Shown piece by piece: positions 1,904 through 9,985 of a stretch of 20,000 nt of DNA. Position 1 is the first letter of the stretch. Each line of letters starts with the position of its first letter. Source of the DNA: Candidatus Zhuqueibacterota bacterium (GTDB taxonomy: Bacteria > BS750m-G25); the NCBI GenBank assembly GCA_016783505.1, contig JADHWK010000007.1, positions 49,122-69,121 on the forward strand. The letters are read 5' to 3'. The position numbers and the translations under genes are program-made. The notes beneath the pieces are model-generated. The model saw only the letters and a program-made list of their open reading frames with translations. It searched no databases and had not been told where the DNA came from.

Positions 1904-2470
1904 ATGTCATCTGATAAGCTTCAAGCAATCATTTCTGAATATCAAATGTTGAGAGAAGAGATCCAGCGGAGATCTACAGATCAGATGCATTGTGTTGTAG
2001 CTTCTGTTCTCTCAATCGGAGTTTTAATATCTCTCATTGCACAAAATCCCACTAAATATTCACCCGTTCTTATTGTAATTCCATGGATTTTAGCGGTTTT
2101 TGGAATAATTTGGTTGGATTGTAACTGCAGTATTTTCTTGCTAGGACAATATATAAGAGATGAAATTGAAGGGAAAAAATTACCTGCATTGTTGGAATCT
2201 TCTGAGATTAACTGGATAGGATGGCAACATTATATTTATAAAAAACGTGAAAAGTGGAAATTTCCATCATATATCGTATTTATTTTGCCATTCTTCTATT
2301 TTGTTATACCTTCCATCGTTTGTGTAATTGCTTATATAATTCTACGCTTATATGGTATTATTACGATGCCAAAAACAATTGAATGGTGCTTTTTAGCAAT
2401 TGGCATAATCTTTATTATAATATTATTATATAGTTGGTACAAATCATATGAAACCACAAAGGGAAGATAA
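1904..2470 (+). CDS. Hypothetical ~4-TM membrane protein (probable integron cassette gene)
   Basis: AGGAGA RBS; N-terminal EYQMLREEI followed by four hydrophobic segments; AT-rich; followed by an attC-like site. Confidence 0.7.
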   Translation: MSSDKLQAIISEYQMLREEIQRRSTDQMHCVVASVLSIGVLISLIAQNPTKYSPVLIVIPWILAVFGIIWLDCNCSIFLLGQYIRDEIEGKKLPALLESSEINWIGWQHYIYKKREKWKFPSYIVFILPFFYFVIPSIVCVIAYIILRLYGIITMPKTIEWCFLAIGIIFIIILLYSWYKSYETTKGR

Positions 2471-2533
2471 AATAAAAAAGGTGATATAGAACAAATAGAG
2501 AGTTATGTCAAATGAGAGCAGCACGGCACAGGC

Positions 2534-2612
2534 GCATGACACAGCATAAAAGGTTCGTGCCTGATGGCAGTCACCTAAATTTTTGCTTCGTAAAAACTTC
2601 TTTTATGCTGGA
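2534..2612 (+). other. attC-like site 1, left part (interrupted by the IS; remainder at 4078-4088)
   Basis: Degenerate R'' GCATGAC (2534-2540); perfect arms CAGCATAAAAG (2542-2552) and CTTTTATGCTG (2600-2610); internal hairpin. Removing the IS joins it to AAAC-TTTTTAC, a degenerate R'. Same layout as the site at 7546-7625. Confidence 0.7.
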
Positions 2613-2626
2613 TCTATAAAAAGGTA

Positions 2627-2944
2627 AAAGTCAAGAGAAAAAAATCCCTCTACGCCCTGCCCGTAGGGTCATGGAATTAGTGTCATCTCGAAATTAGTCG
2701 GGATAGGGCTCTGAAACAAAGCAAAGATTTCCGGCTCTTTGATAATCTTTTCAGGGGGAATGCTGCGAACAGATTGGGTTTTGCCAAGTCGACTGACCGT
2801 ATATGTTACGAAGGGGTGTCATTCCCGCTTGCGCAGGATGACCATCAATCTATTCAACCTGCCGGAACGGTCTTGGGAACTAAACGGTTATCGTATGTAT
2901 ACGGTCGGCCCGAACCCGATAATAAACGTTAGAACGTGCCTCTT
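2627..2944 (-). ncRNA. Putative bridge RNA/seekRNA region of the IS1111 element
   Basis: ~320-nt non-coding right end, the location known for IS1111 guide RNAs. Contains hairpins and guide-like motifs matching the target (2924-2931) and the donor junction (2847-2853, 2800-2804). RNA ends unknown. Confidence 0.6.
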
Positions 2945-4001
2945 TCAGCCGTTATTCGCGCTGTTGTTCGTGATCCAGGCCGGCTTGATTTTAGTTCCCC
3001 GATACAGTTCATTGTTTCGCAGCATAAAGTACACGGCCTTAGCTAGTTTTCTGGCAGTGGCCACAATAGCCTTGCCGTGTCCTTTAGTGGCCTTTTTATA
3101 CTCGTAATAGGCCTTCAGTCCCGGATCTTTTCGAATGGCAACGAGGGCAGCCTCAATAAATGCCGTTCTCAGATACTTATTGGACTGTTTATTGATTTTT
3201 CCTTGATAGAGCTTATCTGCTGATCCCCGGGTGTTGACAGCCAATCCGGCGTATCGGAGAAGGCTCAATTCGTGGGAATCGATGGACCTTTACAATCTCG
3301 GCGATGATTGTCGAAGCATGTACTACTCCAACCCCGTCAATCGAGTTCAGAAGCGGATAGAAGGGGTGGTTAAGGATACGGTTTTTGATCATCTCATAGA
3401 GTTCGTCGATGAAAATGGAGAAGGTCTCGATGAGGTTAAGCTGCTTGGCGATGATCTTTCTGATGGGCTCGGGGAAATTCTGAGCTTCGATCCAGCGGAT
3501 ACCCTTGGAACCGAACACATATTTGTAGAGTCCTTGAAAATTGTACTTATCCAAGTAGGCACGGATGGTGTTTTTGAGGCTGGTGCGTAGGGTCACTAGC
3601 CGATATCGCTGGCGGTTGAGTTCCCGGAGGTGCCGGTACCAAATGTCAGGCACGTAACAGGTTGCAACCATTCCGGCTCTTGAAAGTTGAGCCAGCATAG
3701 CCGAGTCGTACTTGTCATTCTTAGCATGAACCGTTGCAATGGCTCGATTTAGAAAGGGGTTAGCCATTGTGAAGGGGATTCTCTTGAGATTGAGATAATC
3801 AGCGAGCCAGAAGTAGTTTCGAGTAGCCTCGAAGGTCACATGGATGGGTTCAGCGAAGGAATCGAATAAGACATCCAGTTCCTCGGGCCGATTGGGGATC
3901 TGATGGGTTCCCAGTTTTTTGCCGTCAGAATCGACTACAGAAAGAACAGAGTTCTTTTTGTGCAGATCCAGACCGATTTGATATTGAATTGAAGAATCCA
4001 T
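2945..4001 (-). pseudogene. IS110-family transposase/recombinase, frameshifted
   Basis: ATG 4001 with GGAGGT RBS (4011-4006). DEDD residues in GLDLHK, FEAT and KNDKYD. The C-terminal domain (RYAGL..RGSADK..GKINKQSNKYLR..KAIVATARKL) is in another frame, with the shift near 3265 (ATTGAGCCTT on the - strand). About 352 aa if repaired. Confidence 0.9.
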
Positions 4002-4128
4002 GTTGACCTCCTTTTGAGACTTGAGTTTATAACTAAGATACAAAATATTCTCTTTCGAGACTACCTTTTTATAATATAAACTTTTTACGACATTCATAAA
4101 TAGAAAACCCAAGGGGGGTGAGAGGATC

Positions 4129-6327
4129 ATGAAAAGGTTATTAATCGTTTCAAACAGGTTGCCAATTACTGTCGAAAAAAGGAAGGGTAATTTACTTTTT
4201 CGGCAGAGCACAGGAGGCCTGGCTACGGGACTAAGGTCATTCTATAGATCATATGACAGCATATGGATAGGATGGTCTGGAATTACATTAGATAAAATTA
4301 GTACCGAAGAAAAGAAGAGTATTGAAACAAAACTGATGTCTGAGTTTAACTGTTACCCGATTTTTCTCTCGCAAAATAACATTGAAAAGCACTACCATGG
4401 TTTTTGCAACAAAACTATCTGGCCCCTTTTCCACAGTTTCACCCAATATGCAGTTTACGAAAAGGGTTTATGGGAGTCTTACAGGCAGGCAAATAAACTT
4501 TTTTTTGATGCAATTATAGAAAAATCTGAGCCAGATGATATTATCTGGATACATGATTATCATTTAATGCTTCTTCCCAAACTTTTAAGAGAAAAATTAT
4601 CGAATGCTTCAATAGGTTTTTTCCTCCATATACCCTTCCCAACCTTTGAAATATTTCGCCTACTTCCATGGCGTAAGGAAATTTTAGAAGGACTCTTAGG
4701 AGCAGATGTTATAGGTTTTCACACCTATGATTATGCACGACATTTCCTCAGTAGTGTGCAGCGTTTGTTAGGATACGAATACAGTTGGGGTCAAATTACT
4801 GCCTATGATCGTATAATAAATACAGATGTATTTCCAATGGGAATAGACTATCAACTATTTTCAAAAGCTGCTCAGGATCCAGGAGTACAAAAAGAGGTGA
4901 CGAAGTTTCGTAAAAAACTTAGCGATCGTAAAATAATTTTATCAATAGACCGCCTAGACTATACAAAAGGGATACCCCAACGCTTAGAGGTTTTCGACAA
5001 CTTTTTGAAAAAAAACCCAGAGTATAAGGAGAAGGTGAGTCTTATTTTGGTTGCAGTTCCTTCACGCACACAGGTAGAACATTATAAGTTACTGAAAAAA
5101 CAGGTAGATGAACTTATCGGCAAGATTAATGGAGAACATGGAACGATTGGGTGGGTTCCCGTCCTGTATCTCTACCGCTCTCTACCCTTTTCCAGCCTTG
5201 CTGCTTTGTACAGTATTGCTGATATTGCCATTGTCACCCCTCTAAGAGATGGTATGAATCTCATAGCAAAAGAATATATCGCAACTAAGGCAGATGGAAA
5301 AGGGGTCTTGATATTAAGTGAAATGGCTGGAGCATCAAATGAGTTGGGTGAGGCAATCATAGTAAACCCTAACAACAGCAATGAGATGCTAGAGGCATTA
5401 GAAAAAGCCCTGATGATGCCGGAAAAGAAACAGATAGAACACAATAAGCCAATGCAAGAACGCCTCAAACGGTATAGTGTGGTGAGATGGGCAGAAGAGT
5501 TTATAGATAGATTGCTATACACCAAAAAACTTCAGAGTGAGATGTATACGAAGATGCTAACTTATGAAGTCAGATGGAAATTGGTTAGCGATTATCGTAA
5601 AAGCAAGAGGCGGCTTTTACTATTTGATTATGATGGAACTCTTGTCCCTTTTTTTGGTAAACCTGAAGAGGCAAAACCCAGCAATGAGATTTTAAAATTA
5701 CTCAAAAAACTCGCTGAAGATCAAAAAAATGAAGTGGTTCTCATAAGTGGACGTGACAAAGATACTTTAGAATCTTGGTTTGGCAACTTAAATCTGAGTC
5801 TTGTGGCTGAATATGGTGTGTGGCTAAAAGAATCTGTCCGTCCGCCAGGCGGGAAAGAGTGGGAATTAATAGAACCCCTGACTTCCGATTGGAAGGAAAA
5901 GATACGACCAATCCTTGAACTGCATGTAGATAGAACCCCTGGTTCTTTTATTGAAGAGAAAAATTTTTCCCTTGCCTGGCACTATCGAAAAGCCGATCTA
6001 GGATTAAGTTTAATGAGGGCAAGGGAGTTAATGGATAATCTCATAAATCTCACAGCCAATCTTAACCTTGAGGTTCTGGAGGGGAACAAAGTAATTGAAG
6101 TAAAGAATGCTGGTATAAACAAGAGCCGGGTTACGTTAAGATGGATTTCAAAGAAAAGTTGGGACTTTATCTTGGCGGTCGGTGACGATTGGACTGATGA
6201 AGATATTTTTGCTGTGTTACCGGATGAAGCTTATTCATTAAAAGTTGGTTTAACCCCTACGAAGGCAAAGTTCAATCTTAATTCAGTAATGGATGTAAGA
6301 TTATTACTAAAAGATCTGGGGAGGTGA
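4129..6327 (+). CDS. otsAB: Bifunctional trehalose-6-phosphate synthase/phosphatase (OtsA-OtsB fusion, TPSP)
   Basis: GT20 motifs SNRLP, HDYHL, FFLHIPFP, DRLDYTKG and DGMNLIAKEY; C-terminal HAD domain DYDGTL, ISGR, WHYR and GDDWTDED. Confidence 0.95.
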   Translation: MKRLLIVSNRLPITVEKRKGNLLFRQSTGGLATGLRSFYRSYDSIWIGWSGITLDKISTEEKKSIETKLMSEFNCYPIFLSQNNIEKHYHGFCNKTIWPLFHSFTQYAVYEKGLWESYRQANKLFFDAIIEKSEPDDIIWIHDYHLMLLPKLLREKLSNASIGFFLHIPFPTFEIFRLLPWRKEILEGLLGADVIGFHTYDYARHFLSSVQRLLGYEYSWGQITAYDRIINTDVFPMGIDYQLFSKAAQDPGVQKEVTKFRKKLSDRKIILSIDRLDYTKGIPQRLEVFDNFLKKNPEYKEKVSLILVAVPSRTQVEHYKLLKKQVDELIGKINGEHGTIGWVPVLYLYRSLPFSSLAALYSIADIAIVTPLRDGMNLIAKEYIATKADGKGVLILSEMAGASNELGEAIIVNPNNSNEMLEALEKALMMPEKKQIEHNKPMQERLKRYSVVRWAEEFIDRLLYTKKLQSEMYTKMLTYEVRWKLVSDYRKSKRRLLLFDYDGTLVPFFGKPEEAKPSNEILKLLKKLAEDQKNEVVLISGRDKDTLESWFGNLNLSLVAEYGVWLKESVRPPGGKEWELIEPLTSDWKEKIRPILELHVDRTPGSFIEEKNFSLAWHYRKADLGLSLMRARELMDNLINLTANLNLEVLEGNKVIEVKNAGINKSRVTLRWISKKSWDFILAVGDDWTDEDIFAVLPDEAYSLKVGLTPTKAKFNLNSVMDVRLLLKDLGR

Positions 6328-6331
6328 CAAA

Positions 6332-7540
6332 ATGCATAGTTTGGAAGATTATTATGAAATTGTAGGTGATAGGGTTATATCTGAGATACACAAGAGGGCG
6401 AGAAGGCTTTTTGGAAAGCATATATTACACGTTAATTCTACATATCAGGGCGGCGGTGTTGCCGAAATGCTGGCATCCCTTGTGCCTCTCATGAATGACG
6501 TAGGGATTGACACCGGCTGGAGAATATTCCATGGAAACCCTGATTTTTTTACAATCACCAAAAAATTTCACAACGCACTTCAGGGCGATAAGATTAATTT
6601 GTCCGAGATAAAAAAACGCTTGTATTTCCTGGCCAATGAAGATTTTTCTGTCTATACACACTTAGATCACGATTATATAATCATCCACGATCCACAACCC
6701 CTACCTTTAATAAAATATTATAAGAAAGGTCAGCCATGGATTTGGCGGTGCCATGTAGATTTATCGCATCCCAATAAAGAACTATGGGAATTTCTTACAA
6801 GGTTCATTCTTAAGTATGACATGATTATTATTTCAAACGAAAAATATAAGAGAGAAGGCCTACCGGTAGAACAAAGGATTATTTATCCTGTTATCGATCC
6901 TCTATCTCCTAAAAATATGGAAATATCCGACACAACGATTTCAAAATATCTTAAAAAGTTTGGTGTTCCTACAGATAAACCGATCATAACTCAGATATCG
7001 AGATTTGATAAGTGGAAAGATCCGGTAGGTGTAACAGAAGCATTTAAAATTGTTAAGAAACATGTAGATTGTAGATTAGTATTATGTGGAAGTATGGCCA
7101 CCGATGACCCAGAAGGCTACCAGATTTATGAGAAGGTAAAAAGAAAGGTTGAAAAATTTATTGCCAATAACGATGTAATTCTTATAACTACCGAGAACAA
7201 CATTCTTGTAAACGCTTTACAGCGCAGTTCTGCAGTAATAATACAAAAGTCTATAAGGGAGGGCTTCGGGCTTACGGTAACTGAGGCGCTTTGGAAGGCA
7301 AGACCTGTCGTGGCTTCAAATGTAGGGGGGATTCCTCTTCAAATAAAGGATGGAGAAAATGGATTTTTGCTTGATCCTTACAACACAAAAGGTTTTGCTC
7401 AGATGATTGTTCAAATATTGCAAAATCCCAGACTGGCAGAGAAGATGGGTAAAGAAGGTAAGGAAATTGTCAGGAAAGAATTTCTCATAACAAGGCTTTT
7501 GTCAGACTATTTAGATTTATTTAATGATATGGAAAAATGA
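6332..7540 (+). CDS. treT: Trehalose glycosyltransferring synthase TreT-like (GT4)
   Basis: HVNSTYQGGGVAEML, TKKFHNALQG, IHDPQP, WRCHVD, QISRFDKWKDP and QKSIREGFGLTVTEALWK. Starts 4 nt after the otsAB stop with a GGAGG RBS. Confidence 0.85.
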   Translation: MHSLEDYYEIVGDRVISEIHKRARRLFGKHILHVNSTYQGGGVAEMLASLVPLMNDVGIDTGWRIFHGNPDFFTITKKFHNALQGDKINLSEIKKRLYFLANEDFSVYTHLDHDYIIIHDPQPLPLIKYYKKGQPWIWRCHVDLSHPNKELWEFLTRFILKYDMIIISNEKYKREGLPVEQRIIYPVIDPLSPKNMEISDTTISKYLKKFGVPTDKPIITQISRFDKWKDPVGVTEAFKIVKKHVDCRLVLCGSMATDDPEGYQIYEKVKRKVEKFIANNDVILITTENNILVNALQRSSAVIIQKSIREGFGLTVTEALWKARPVVASNVGGIPLQIKDGENGFLLDPYNTKGFAQMIVQILQNPRLAEKMGKEGKEIVRKEFLITRLLSDYLDLFNDMEK

Positions 7541-8233: not shown

Positions 8234-9985
8234 ATGAGCCGTTCAAGGATTCTTCACTTTGGGATCTGGCACTATCACCTGAAACCGGGGGGGGTGCGGA
8301 CCGTCATCGAGAACACCCTAAAGGCGCTGACCTACCTAAATGATTACCACGGGGTGTCCGTGGAAATTTTCAGCGGGGATGACAGGGGAGTAGAATTCGA
8401 TAAGGATAGGGTGGAAGAAGGATCGAGGTCGGGGCTCTCCATCACCGTCAGGACCATCCGTATTCCTGAATTGAGTTATTCTGACCGCCTCTACGAAAGC
8501 AGGGGACAACTTAAGGCCACCGCCAAGGGAATAAGGGATACTATGATAAGGAGTATGTCCCTGAATCACTGTGACCAGGATAATCCCTATATTTTAAACT
8601 CCCATAATCTGGCCCTGGGAAAGAACCCTGCCGCCTCCTGGGCGTTGAAATTATTGGCGGAATGGGCTTTAGTCCATAAAAAACCCCTTTGGGTCCTTAA
8701 TCAGGTCCATGATTTTGCCGAAAATAACCGCCCCGACCGCCTTCGGGTGCTGCAAAATTGTACGGGAACCAGGGATAATCGGTTTGCCGCCGGACTGATC
8801 TATCCCAACCTGCCCGGGGTGCTTTACGCCGTTCTTACCAGGGCTGACCGGGATAATCTAATCCAGGTGGGACTGGACCCCCAAAGGCTTTTCGTCCTTC
8901 CTAATTCAATAAATATTCTGCCTTTTGAAAGTGGGCTTTCCCAGACGGAACTGGAAGTTAAAGGGGAACTCCTCCGCCGAATAAGCCGTTATGCCAGAGA
9001 ACAGGACTTTGTCTTCGATCCAGAATCCCCCATTTTGCTCTCCCCCATGAAGATCATGCGCAGAAAAAACTCCCTGGAATCGGTGTTGATTTTAATCCTC
9101 CTGAACGCCCTGGGAGAAGGATATCAGTTGCTGTTGTCTCTGGGCGCTCAGTCACCCCATGACTTAAAATACGGAAATCACTTAAAGCAATTCATTAGGA
9201 AATATCGGTTGCCGATAACGGTTGGATTCGGGGACGAATTTATTCTGTCTGGCAAGCAGAGACTGGTGAGGAACGGCCGCATCCTTCAATTTTCCCTGTT
9301 TGACCTTTACGCAATTTCCACGGGTGTGATTACCACTTCGATTATGGAAGGATTCGGGCTGGGTTTTCTGGAGGGCTGGCTGTTGGGTCTTCCGGTGGTG
9401 GGCCGCAGGATCCCGGGGGTCATCGAGGAATTTGAGCGGGCCGGTTTGGATTTCGGTCATCTTTACGATAGGGTGGAGGTTAGGGTTGAATGGCTCGATG
9501 GGGGGCTTGCTGGGCTGATAGAGATATTTCGCCTGAAATTAAACAAGCAGCGGCGGCAGCAGGGCCTGGCCCCGTTAATCCCGGCTGAGATTGAGAGGAG
9601 ATTCCGGGCGAGAAAGATATTTATTTCAGCGGGGAGGAAATGCATTGACTTTACTGAATTGGATCCCCCCAAGCAGTTGGCACTTATGGCAAAGATTATG
9701 AAAAATAGGAGGCTTTTGGACGAATTGTTGTATCTGAACCAAAAGATTAAATCTATACCAGAGCTCGTGGGCGGCGGCTCAAGAAAGTTGATAAAAAGAA
9801 ATCGAGAGGCTATAGTTAAAAATTACTCAACCCGAGCAAAAGCGAATAGGTTAAAGCAGATTATTCGCCAGGGTAATAAATTGTACCGAGAACCTATGGA
9901 AGCCAGGCAGGCACAAAAGGAAATTTCCAACCGGGGGCTCATCGAAAAATACCTTTCTGTTGAGCAAATAAACCTTTTATATTAA
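8234..9985 (+). CDS. GT4-like glycosyltransferase, candidate mannosylglucosyl-3-phosphoglycerate synthase (MggA-like)
   Basis: HYHLKPGGVRTVI, HNLALGKN, HDFAE, RRKN and TTSIMEGFGLGFLEGW (E-x7-E GT-B motif); directly upstream of gpgS. Confidence 0.75.
   Translation: MSRSRILHFGIWHYHLKPGGVRTVIENTLKALTYLNDYHGVSVEIFSGDDRGVEFDKDRVEEGSRSGLSITVRTIRIPELSYSDRLYESRGQLKATAKGIRDTMIRSMSLNHCDQDNPYILNSHNLALGKNPAASWALKLLAEWALVHKKPLWVLNQVHDFAENNRPDRLRVLQNCTGTRDNRFAAGLIYPNLPGVLYAVLTRADRDNLIQVGLDPQRLFVLPNSINILPFESGLSQTELEVKGELLRRISRYAREQDFVFDPESPILLSPMKIMRRKNSLESVLILILLNALGEGYQLLLSLGAQSPHDLKYGNHLKQFIRKYRLPITVGFGDEFILSGKQRLVRNGRILQFSLFDLYAISTGVITTSIMEGFGLGFLEGWLLGLPVVGRRIPGVIEEFERAGLDFGHLYDRVEVRVEWLDGGLAGLIEIFRLKLNKQRRQQGLAPLIPAEIERRFRARKIFISAGRKCIDFTELDPPKQLALMAKIMKNRRLLDELLYLNQKIKSIPELVGGGSRKLIKRNREAIVKNYSTRAKANRLKQIIRQGNKLYREPMEARQAQKEISNRGLIEKYLSVEQINLLY

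Follow-up and report, generated by a model that had tools for sequence, protein, structure and literature searches.

Can the guide RNA of an insertion sequence (IS) read its DNA target in a folded form? This question is raised by an IS1111-type IS in a stretch of 20,000 nucleotides (nt) from a Candidatus Zhuqueibacterota bacterium (GenBank assembly GCA_016783505.1, contig JADHWK010000007.1, positions 49,122 to 69,121 of the forward strand; hereafter designated the window). Based on the letters of the window alone, it had been proposed (hereafter, the original prediction) that the non-coding end of this IS encodes a bridge RNA (seekRNA) programmed against the core of an integron attC site, and that one of its guides, ATAAC, matches the R'' box about 70 nt away, which extrusion of the attC hairpin would bring next to the core. 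Recognition of a folded DNA target by an RNA would have been a new finding; this part of the proposal does not survive the analysis described below. The locus is best explained, at a probability of about 0.85, as a decayed IS1111-family IS with an ordinary bridge (seek) RNA aimed at the 3' ends of attC-like sites.

The IS and a covarying two-loop RNA

The element belongs to the IS1111 group of the IS110 family, as seen from the domains of its transposase, the 12-bp subterminal inverted repeats, and a non-coding region that is longer on the 3' side of the gene (333 nt after the TGA stop at 2947–2945, minus strand) than on the 5' side (about 75 nt before the start); the coordinates of all features are collected in Table 1. 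Both repeats are set in from the IS ends, their length falls within the 7–17 bp of the IS1111 group, and compensating changes were found in both repeats of a homologous locus, L002. Translations place the two halves of the transposase out of frame, with a break at about 3255–3268, and related copies from other metagenomes have one or two extra bases at 3258–3263. A single DNA match identifies the window copy as the only one in its metagenome-assembled genome (MAG; G000, 59.9% complete), and no DNA match was obtained in 60 other genomes, the hosts of which are related at the domain level only. Among the 2763 plasmid records with a match, no plasmid-borne relative exceeds 36% identity to the transposase, and no named ISKpn4 or ISPa21 record was identified.

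Homologous loci were collected by a genome scan, which gave L002 (with an intact transposase, 65% identical) and L003, and by a metagenome scan with an alignment of three proteins, which gave L004–L014. The IS 3' end is present in 11 of these 13 loci, L013 and L014 being without it. The alignments A4 and A5 contain the window and ten homologues (11 rows), L008 having been left out as the same IS as L007. Run unaided, RNAalifold returned two covarying helices, GACYG/YRGTC and TA[A/G/T]CC/GG[T/C/A]TG, both belonging to the downstream part of the predicted RNA (module 2). A parallel upstream module (module 1) was first recognised by eye, and the full structure was then scored on A5.

The full structure comprises 38 pairs in four stacked helices (each apical hairpin being counted with the helix beneath it), and 92.3% of its cells are paired in A5, as compared with 24–42% when the partners are slid by 1–3 columns. 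Changes on both sides were found for 26 of the 38 pairs, and the observed value of any of five measures was reached by none of 500 shuffles. In helix Hb1, for example, a G-C pair is swapped in the window and A-U is replaced by G-C in L002. In the window row, the six helix segments form 12/13, 4/5, 3/5, 5/5, 5/5, and 3/5 pairs, and in minimum free energy folds L011 shows both modules, the window module 1. These results support a conserved two-loop RNA fold by covariation, and on this point the original prediction of an IS1111-type bridge RNA encoded at the IS 3' end holds.

Module 1 measures 75 nt between the ends of its closing helix, and the whole predicted RNA about 165 nt. Judging from the sequence, the RNA would start inside the transposase 3' end, its coding extent comprising that end and the first ~130 nt of the non-coding region. 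In L003, L005, L006, L007, L010, and L012, the transposase open reading frame (ORF) is about 40 codons longer than in L002 and ends in or near the module 1 apical hairpin, so that the closing helix of module 1 and the right target guide are coding sequence in these homologues. The end of the transposase ORF in the window is similar, the stop of L002 lying earlier. The window also has 17 extra nt at 2862–2878, in the module 2 apical region, relative to L002 and to close relatives in runs X6 and X7. The third hairpin probably marks the 3' end of a long RNA form, about 165 nt from 2981.

All six motifs of the original prediction are present on the minus strand, five of them being TAACGTTT (2931–2924), ATAAC (2891–2887), ATAGATT (2853–2847), the GTCAT/ATGAC hairpin (2842–2818), and ATATA (2804–2800), and the fold assigns to each of them a place. 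When the 333-nt non-coding end was shuffled 5000 times at constant mononucleotide composition, the probability that a motif occurred at least once was 0.006 for TAACGTTT, 0.026 for ATAGATT, 0.31 for ATAAC, and 0.34 for ATATA; by this measure ATAAC and ATATA alone are chance-level 5-mers. In the homologues, the core of TAACGTTT and ATAGATT are kept in loops, whereas ATAAC and ATATA are not kept as guides. The "small hairpin" placed between the guides is in fact the 3' strand of the long helix Ha1. The GTCAT/ATGAC hairpin is real, with a hairpin at the same place in the homologues, but it comes after the donor loop and its GTC overlaps helix Ha2. ATATA had been taken as a match to the left IS terminus; its position is not conserved, and it lies within one partner of an alternative helix considered below.

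Table 1 Coordinates of the IS, its predicted RNA, the junctions, and the attC-like sites (window positions unless a contig or locus is given)
Feature	Position	Strand	Remarks
IS1111-type IS	2613–4079	-	Counting the TT copy at the left junction (4079–4078); ends set from 12 homologous loci
Left subterminal inverted repeat TATAAAAAGGTA (IS sense)	4062–4073	-	12 nt, 100% complementary to 2615–2626
Right subterminal inverted repeat	2615–2626	-	12 nt, partner of 4062–4073
Transposase N-terminal frame, DEDD/RuvC-like domain	3216–4001	-	Pfam DEDD_Tnp_IS110, PF01548, E = 3.9e-24
Transposase C-terminal frame, Transposase_20	2945–3268	-	PF02371, E = 3.7e-11; domain 3268–2948
TTGACT, -35 half of a putative junction promoter formed on end joining	2629–2634	-	From the sequence; kept in homologues
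Ha1 5' strand, module 1 closing helix, inside the transposase frame	2968–2981	-	13 pairs, 11 changed on both sides, 90.8% of cells paired
Right target guide strand CAACAGCGCGAA	2955–2966	-	Position equivalent to the L011 strand; last two bases face the junction dinucleotide
Hb1 5' strand TAACG	2950–2954	-	Alignment positions 48–52 pair with 83–87
Module 1 apical loop, containing the stop codon 2947–2945	2937–2949	-	Variable hairpin in homologues, with compensatory changes (positions 53–57 pair with 77–81)
Hb1 3' strand CGTTC	2932–2936	-	Same pairs, 48–52 with 83–87
Left target guide strand TAACGT + TT + ATTA, including TAACGTTT	2920–2931	-	AACGTTTA invariant in 11/11 rows
Ha1 3' strand	2907–2919	-	Pairs with 2981–2968; 12/13 paired in the window
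Ha2 5' strand GACCG	2902–2906	-	96.4% paired, UA:7 CG:4 at one pair, 0/500 shuffles
Right donor guide strand TATACATACGA	2891–2901	-	Assigned by position; modest complementarity to the left IS end
Hb2 5' strand TAACC	2886–2890	-	Positions 133–137 pair with 164–168; AU:5 GC:4 UA:2 and CG:9 UA:2
Hb2 3' strand GGTTG	2855–2859	-	Covaries with the TAACC strand
Left donor guide strand AATAGA + TT + GA, including ATAGATT	2845–2854	-	Identical to the right IS terminus ATAGA + TT
Ha2 3' strand TGGTC	2840–2844	-	Overlaps the third hairpin arm by 3 nt
Third hairpin GTCATCCTGCGCAAGCGGGAATGAC (CCTGC-GCAA-GCGGG core)	2818–2842	-	Hairpin of other sequence at the same place in homologues (by eye)
Conserved distal segment TATACGGTC	2795–2803	-	9 nt, 100% complementary to GACCGTATA (2906–2898); contains most of ATATA
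Left junction	4078–4090	-	AAAAGT (4085–4080; TAACGT in homologues), then TT (4079–4078); in gene (+) sense, a degenerate GTT-box end
Right junction dinucleotide TC (2612–2611) and attC-like palindrome body	2531–2612	-	nhmmer match C27:51652-51735; 3' of ORF 1904–2470
Repeat copies in G000	C15:5800-5900; C19:28822-28887; C29:6345-6446; C36:51339-51423; C53:8412-8494 and 9861-9965; C82:6526-6620; C84:34636-34734; window 2531-2614		
Cassette-like array sites of L010	661-790; 2898-2960; 3520-3665		

Guides, junctions and attC-like target sites

The two left guides are conserved and identical to the junctions. TAACGTTT, which had been read as the bottom strand of a canonical attC end, is the left target guide: its sequence AACGTTTA is invariant in all 11 rows, and AACGTTT stands at the left junction of 9 of 10 homologous loci (L002, L003, L004, L006, L007, L008, L010, L011, and L013, with L007 and L008 sharing one left flank within this count). 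The exceptions are L005, with CATCGTTT, and the window itself, with AAAAGTTT, whose left flank matches the left target guide at 4/6 positions. Likewise, ATAGATT, present in 10/11 rows (ATACATT in L004), matches the right IS terminus and is the left donor guide, as had been supposed. L004 (2571–2693) is unusual in having a much shorter 3' end in which the sequence after the donor loop is missing, an altered right inverted repeat (GATTTTCATAGA), and this mismatched left donor guide. L007 and L008 carry the same IS with identical left flanks over more than 130 nt and different right flanks (different site bodies), and the box complementary to the shared left flank is found only at the end of the L007 right flank; L008 has the appearance of a recombinant of two IS copies.

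TT occupies loop positions 7–8 of both left guides, counted from GGTTG (AAACGT-TT and AATAGA-TT), in accord with the earlier observation that both end in TT. We infer from this that the TT core holds, in the register that puts ACGT last in the left target and ATATT first in the left IS end. This register is favoured by the uninterrupted sites TAACGTTTCC, by the pairing optimum of the loop-2 5' strand, and by the 17-nt spacing between TTGACT and TATATT. Thus, uninterrupted sites of the MAG (C36, C53, and C84) read TAACGTTTCC in the IS sense. The right donor guide in its best register (offset 2) forms on average 5.09 of 8 Watson-Crick pairs with the left end over the 11 rows, as compared with 2.3–3.9 in other registers. 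In the joined ends, TATATT of the left end would lie 17 nt from TTGACT in the preferred register (hand count); IS1111 promoters are described as split between the two ends and formed at the junction (PMC11187229). Other cores considered were AT and then the first two T's of GTTT; the latter was replaced by the second and third T after the uninterrupted sites and the register test. When the variable 5' strand of loop 2 was compared by eye with the target flanks, six-base matches were seen in L002 and L004 only, in no consistent register.

The right target guide lies elsewhere than had been mapped. In each loop of IS1111 seekRNAs, the match to the top strand stands 5' of that to the bottom strand (PMC11187229), and the right (top-strand) target guide therefore lies upstream of the left (bottom-strand) one, at 2955–2966 inside the transposase frame. 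ATAAC, to which this role had been given, consists of position 2891 and the first four bases of the Hb2 5' strand, a helix strand in the donor module. At its position, the homologues have TAACC, TAGCC, TATCC, and TAGCT, which change together with the partners GGTTG, GGCTG, GGATG, and AGCTG.

After the terminal ATAGA, the right junction reads TT in 6/12 cases and CT in 3, the remainder being TC, CC, or GT. The right target guide of L011 pairs with the adjacent right flank without a mismatch (11/11), where the maximum among 119 non-cognate guide–flank pairs was 8/11 and their mean 3.96. The match to the adjacent flank is 8/11 in L012, 9 including three G-T pairs in L002, 7 including one G-T pair in L003, and 6 each in L007 and L009. 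When the whole site was searched on both strands, the best match fell in the adjacent register in L011 (equalled by 1/500 shuffles) and L002 (38/500). As for matches at distant places or on the opposite strand, none exceeded chance at six sites, where shuffles did as well in 181 (window), 64 (L009), 499 (L004), 198 (L006), 300 (L010), and 376 (L008) of 500 trials. In all cases with C as the first junction base, the right target guide ends in G (4/4). Where it matches at all, the right target guide thus reads the adjacent linear duplex, and no distant element is matched. By eye, the right guide of the window also resembles the right flank in the same sense (CAGC...AA), a resemblance that was set aside for its wrong polarity.

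The target proves to be the GTT/AAC end of attC-like sites, as had been predicted. The modelled empty sites are long imperfect palindromes with complementary end boxes: GGCAGCTAAC...GTTAGCTGCC in L007, GCCTAAC...GTTAGGC in L006, GCTTAAC...GTTAGGC in L004, and GTATAAC...GTTAGTT in L003. These boxes fit the attC inverse-core/core consensus, RYYYAAC...GTTRRRY. The arms of the window site (2542–2552 and 2600–2610) are 11 nt long and 100% complementary, and its GTT box is degenerate (TTTTTAC). Read in the gene sense, the IS interrupts the spacer that joins the last arm to the 3'-terminal GTT box of the site, and it is antisense to the gene. The insertion would be expected to disable the attC-like site, since the GTT box is separated from the rest.

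The window site belongs to a repeat family with 8–9 further copies on 8 contigs of the MAG, scattered rather than in one array. Of the 9 copies examined, 8 directly follow the 3' end of an ORF that runs opposite to the IS sense. Each repeat is a palindrome of ~85–105 nt with variable outer arms, a conserved inner AAG-hairpin-TTTGGGT, and AAC/GTT end boxes. The repeat is highly multi-copy in other metagenomes, where its plus strand continues GG-AAAC-GTTAGGC, GTTATCC, GTTAAAC, and similar; in one of them, a relative ~96% identical to the window IS abuts the repeat, with a left flank GTTAGGC. L010 has a cassette-like array of three attC-like sites spaced by 500–700 bp, each of which follows the 3' end of a minus-strand ORF; the IS occupies the middle site. 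That middle site keeps about 38 nt of body before the next ORF, and the third has an unoccupied TATAACGT-GT.

No integron integrase of the MAG scored above the family cut-off (the best score with TIGR02249 being 86.7 bits as against a cut-off of 265); at a completeness of 59.9%, absence of the integrase is not thereby shown. "attC-like" is the safe term for the sites of the window genome. Two tyrosine-recombinase fragments (C82:11931-12194 and C44:2911-3190) score 60–86 bits on the integron-integrase model, well below the cut-off; the former shares its contig with a repeat copy and lies about 600 bp from the contig end.

The window copy is most likely a trapped, inactive relic, in view of its frameshift, the left flank matching at 4/6 and the right flank at 3/11 positions, and the degenerate GTT box. 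Neither an empty site at the window locus nor a circle junction was seen, and no contig of other metagenomes joined the two flanks across the IS. The IS is flanked by an unannotated ORF (1904–2470, plus strand) and by a gene for a fusion of trehalose-6-phosphate synthase and phosphatase (OtsA-OtsB; 4129–6327, plus strand, 732 aa), which is followed in a trehalose synthesis cluster (4129–7540) by a TreT-type trehalose synthase (402 aa).

Proposed mechanism and alternative readings

In the mechanism proposed here, loop 1 would bind the target, with the 2955–2966 strand pairing with the top strand of the right flank and the 3' strand TAACGT-TT (2931–2924) with the bottom strand of the left flank, while loop 2 would bind the joined IS ends, its 3' strand ATAGA-TT matching the right terminus and its 5' strand matching the left terminus imperfectly. 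The TT shared at loop positions 7–8 would be the exchange point. The left target guide would be fixed on AACGT-TT, corresponding to the spacer and GTT box in the gene sense, and the lineage would for this reason insert at attC-like 3' ends, antisense to the upstream gene; the right target guide varies by lineage. The RNA would be expressed and would be bound by the transposase, and the strand taken as the right donor guide and the exact exchange register are presumed to be those given above.

Several observations weigh against this ordinary guide-RNA reading. At 6 of the 11 sites scored, the right target guide matches the adjacent flank weakly or not at all (3 of 11 positions in the window, 2 each in L004, L006, and L008, none in L010, and the 6 of L009; counting G-T pairs, 3 in L004, 3 in L006, and 4 in L008), and the mean over cognate pairs is little above the non-cognate mean. 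The right donor guide forms only 4–6 of 8 pairs (4/8 in the window), with a conserved C opposite an A beside the core. Single-sequence folding energies are unremarkable (z = -0.89, -1.56, and -2.79), and no Rfam family was matched, the sole match at E ≤ 1 being a chance snoRNA elsewhere in the window. There are just 11 sequences, several of them close kin, so that the shuffle controls overstate significance, and the weight of the fold argument accordingly falls on the slid control and on the variety of pair types. Finally, an alternative outer helix between 2795–2803 and 2898–2906 competes with Ha2, which closes loop 2. In this helix 84.6% of cells are paired, as compared with 16–40% when slid; one pair is changed on both sides, and 33/500 shuffles did as well. 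Ha2 is better supported (96.4% and 0/500). The alternative helix would surround both the donor loop and the third hairpin, would occupy the first bases of the right donor guide strand, and may represent a conformational switch.

Recognition of the distant R'' box of a folded attC hairpin by ATAAC would agree with the presence of ATAAC at the proposed place, with the hairpin-forming palindrome of the window site, and with an adjacent window flank that no guide matches. The argument rested, however, on ATAAC being a guide, and it falls with the finding that this chance-level 5-mer (P = 0.31) is the 5' strand of Hb2 in the donor module, not the target module, covarying with its partner (AU:5 GC:4 UA:2 and CG:9 UA:2). 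In L011 (at all 11 positions) and in L002, the best match of the true right target guide is the adjacent linear flank, and in the window, L009, and L004 this guide has no better-than-chance match to the site on either strand, as the shuffle counts given above (181, 64, and 499 of 500) indicate. Folded-attC recognition by this RNA has consequently next to no probability. The conserved 3' region could otherwise serve as a regulatory element, or as a set of DNA sites bound by the transposase, rather than encode a guide RNA, and conservation alone would be compatible with such DNA sites; compensatory changes in 26 of the 38 pairs are, however, the signature of a folded single strand and not of protein-binding duplex sites, and this reading, which also leaves unexplained why the loop strands are identical to both junctions in a strand-specific way, is very improbable.

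A further reading, in which some attC families are captured by the left guide alone together with the palindrome structure (a cruciform or hairpin) or a protein contact, the right guide being dispensable, appears unlikely, though less so than the two preceding ones. In its favour, the IS copies of the window, L009, and L004, with differing RNAs, occupy the same position of one attC family (arm CAGCATA...) and show no right-guide pairing beyond the junction bases; the ~96% relative of the window IS also abuts a CAGCATA-type repeat; and, with respect to the upstream gene, what is read in the IS sense is the bottom strand of the site. It is the bottom strand of an integron attC that folds for recombination. 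The same pattern is explained equally well by survivorship: since flank recognition is required for excision and circle formation in ISEc11 (PMC11187229), copies at mismatched sites cannot excise and would remain, each assembled as a single copy; the window copy is itself broken. Against capture by the left guide alone stands also the requirement of IS621 for only about 4 bp on the right side (PMC11208160), and no positive evidence for recognition of structure was found in this analysis.

Comparison with known systems

Bridge or seek RNAs of IS1111 elements, including those aimed at attC, have already been described. What is gained here is a loop-by-loop map for an environmental IS1111 lineage and an RNA that would begin inside the transposase gene; the fixed left guide combined with the lineage-specific right guide makes these loci a natural data set on the needs of the recombinases for right-side pairing. 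The window lineage resembles ISEc11 and ISPa11 (Siddiquee et al. 2024, PMC11187229; Durrant et al. 2024, PMC11208160) in its DEDD transposase, subterminal repeats, long 3' non-coding end, guide order, and split promoter. It is set apart from them by the RNA start inside the coding region and by the stop codon in the module 1 apical loop. The sizes are close to those of published IS1111 seekRNAs, with 75 nt for module 1 as compared with 82–96 nt for the short form, and about 165 nt for the whole as compared with 148–172 nt for the long form (PMC13604230, Table 1; PMC11187229).

With IS621 the window lineage shares two internal loops, two guides in each, complementarity to opposite strands, and a shared dinucleotide core (PMC11208158); it differs in the reversed order of the guides within the loops, the location of the RNA 3' rather than 5' of the gene, a TT instead of a CT core, and long subterminal repeats. 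The closest known case to the proposed folded-attC recognition is that of the group IIC-attC introns. These introns use a DNA stem-loop as part of their target. They too are mobile elements guided by RNA, and their insertions in attC run antisense to the cassettes (PMC3001079), but they are ribozyme-based retroelements whose protein and RNA are unrelated. No report of folded-attC recognition was found in a full-text literature search on bridge or seek RNA together with attC.

The nearest counterparts are the attC-targeting IS1111 elements ISKpn4, ISPst6, and ISPa25, for which seekRNAs have been demonstrated (PMC11187229) and which form, with ISPa21, the IS1111-attC group, whose members insert antisense to the cassettes and always at one point of attC (PMC3001079). 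Two Klebsiella plasmid matches inspected while seeking ISKpn4 were not in attC sites. Published ISKpn4-type targets read ...TTGAA*CGAATTGTTAG in the IS sense (PMC13604230, Table 1), a point at the 5' (R'') end of attC, on the border of the spacer and L'', with the box 3' of the IS. In contrast, the window lineage uses ..TAACGT-TT-arm, a point that lies one to two bases away from the GTT box at the 3' (R') end, and here the box is found on the 5' side of the IS. The window lineage would work like the IS1111-attC group but does not share its defining insertion point, hitting the opposite end of attC-like sites from that hit by the clinical ISKpn4/ISPa21 group.

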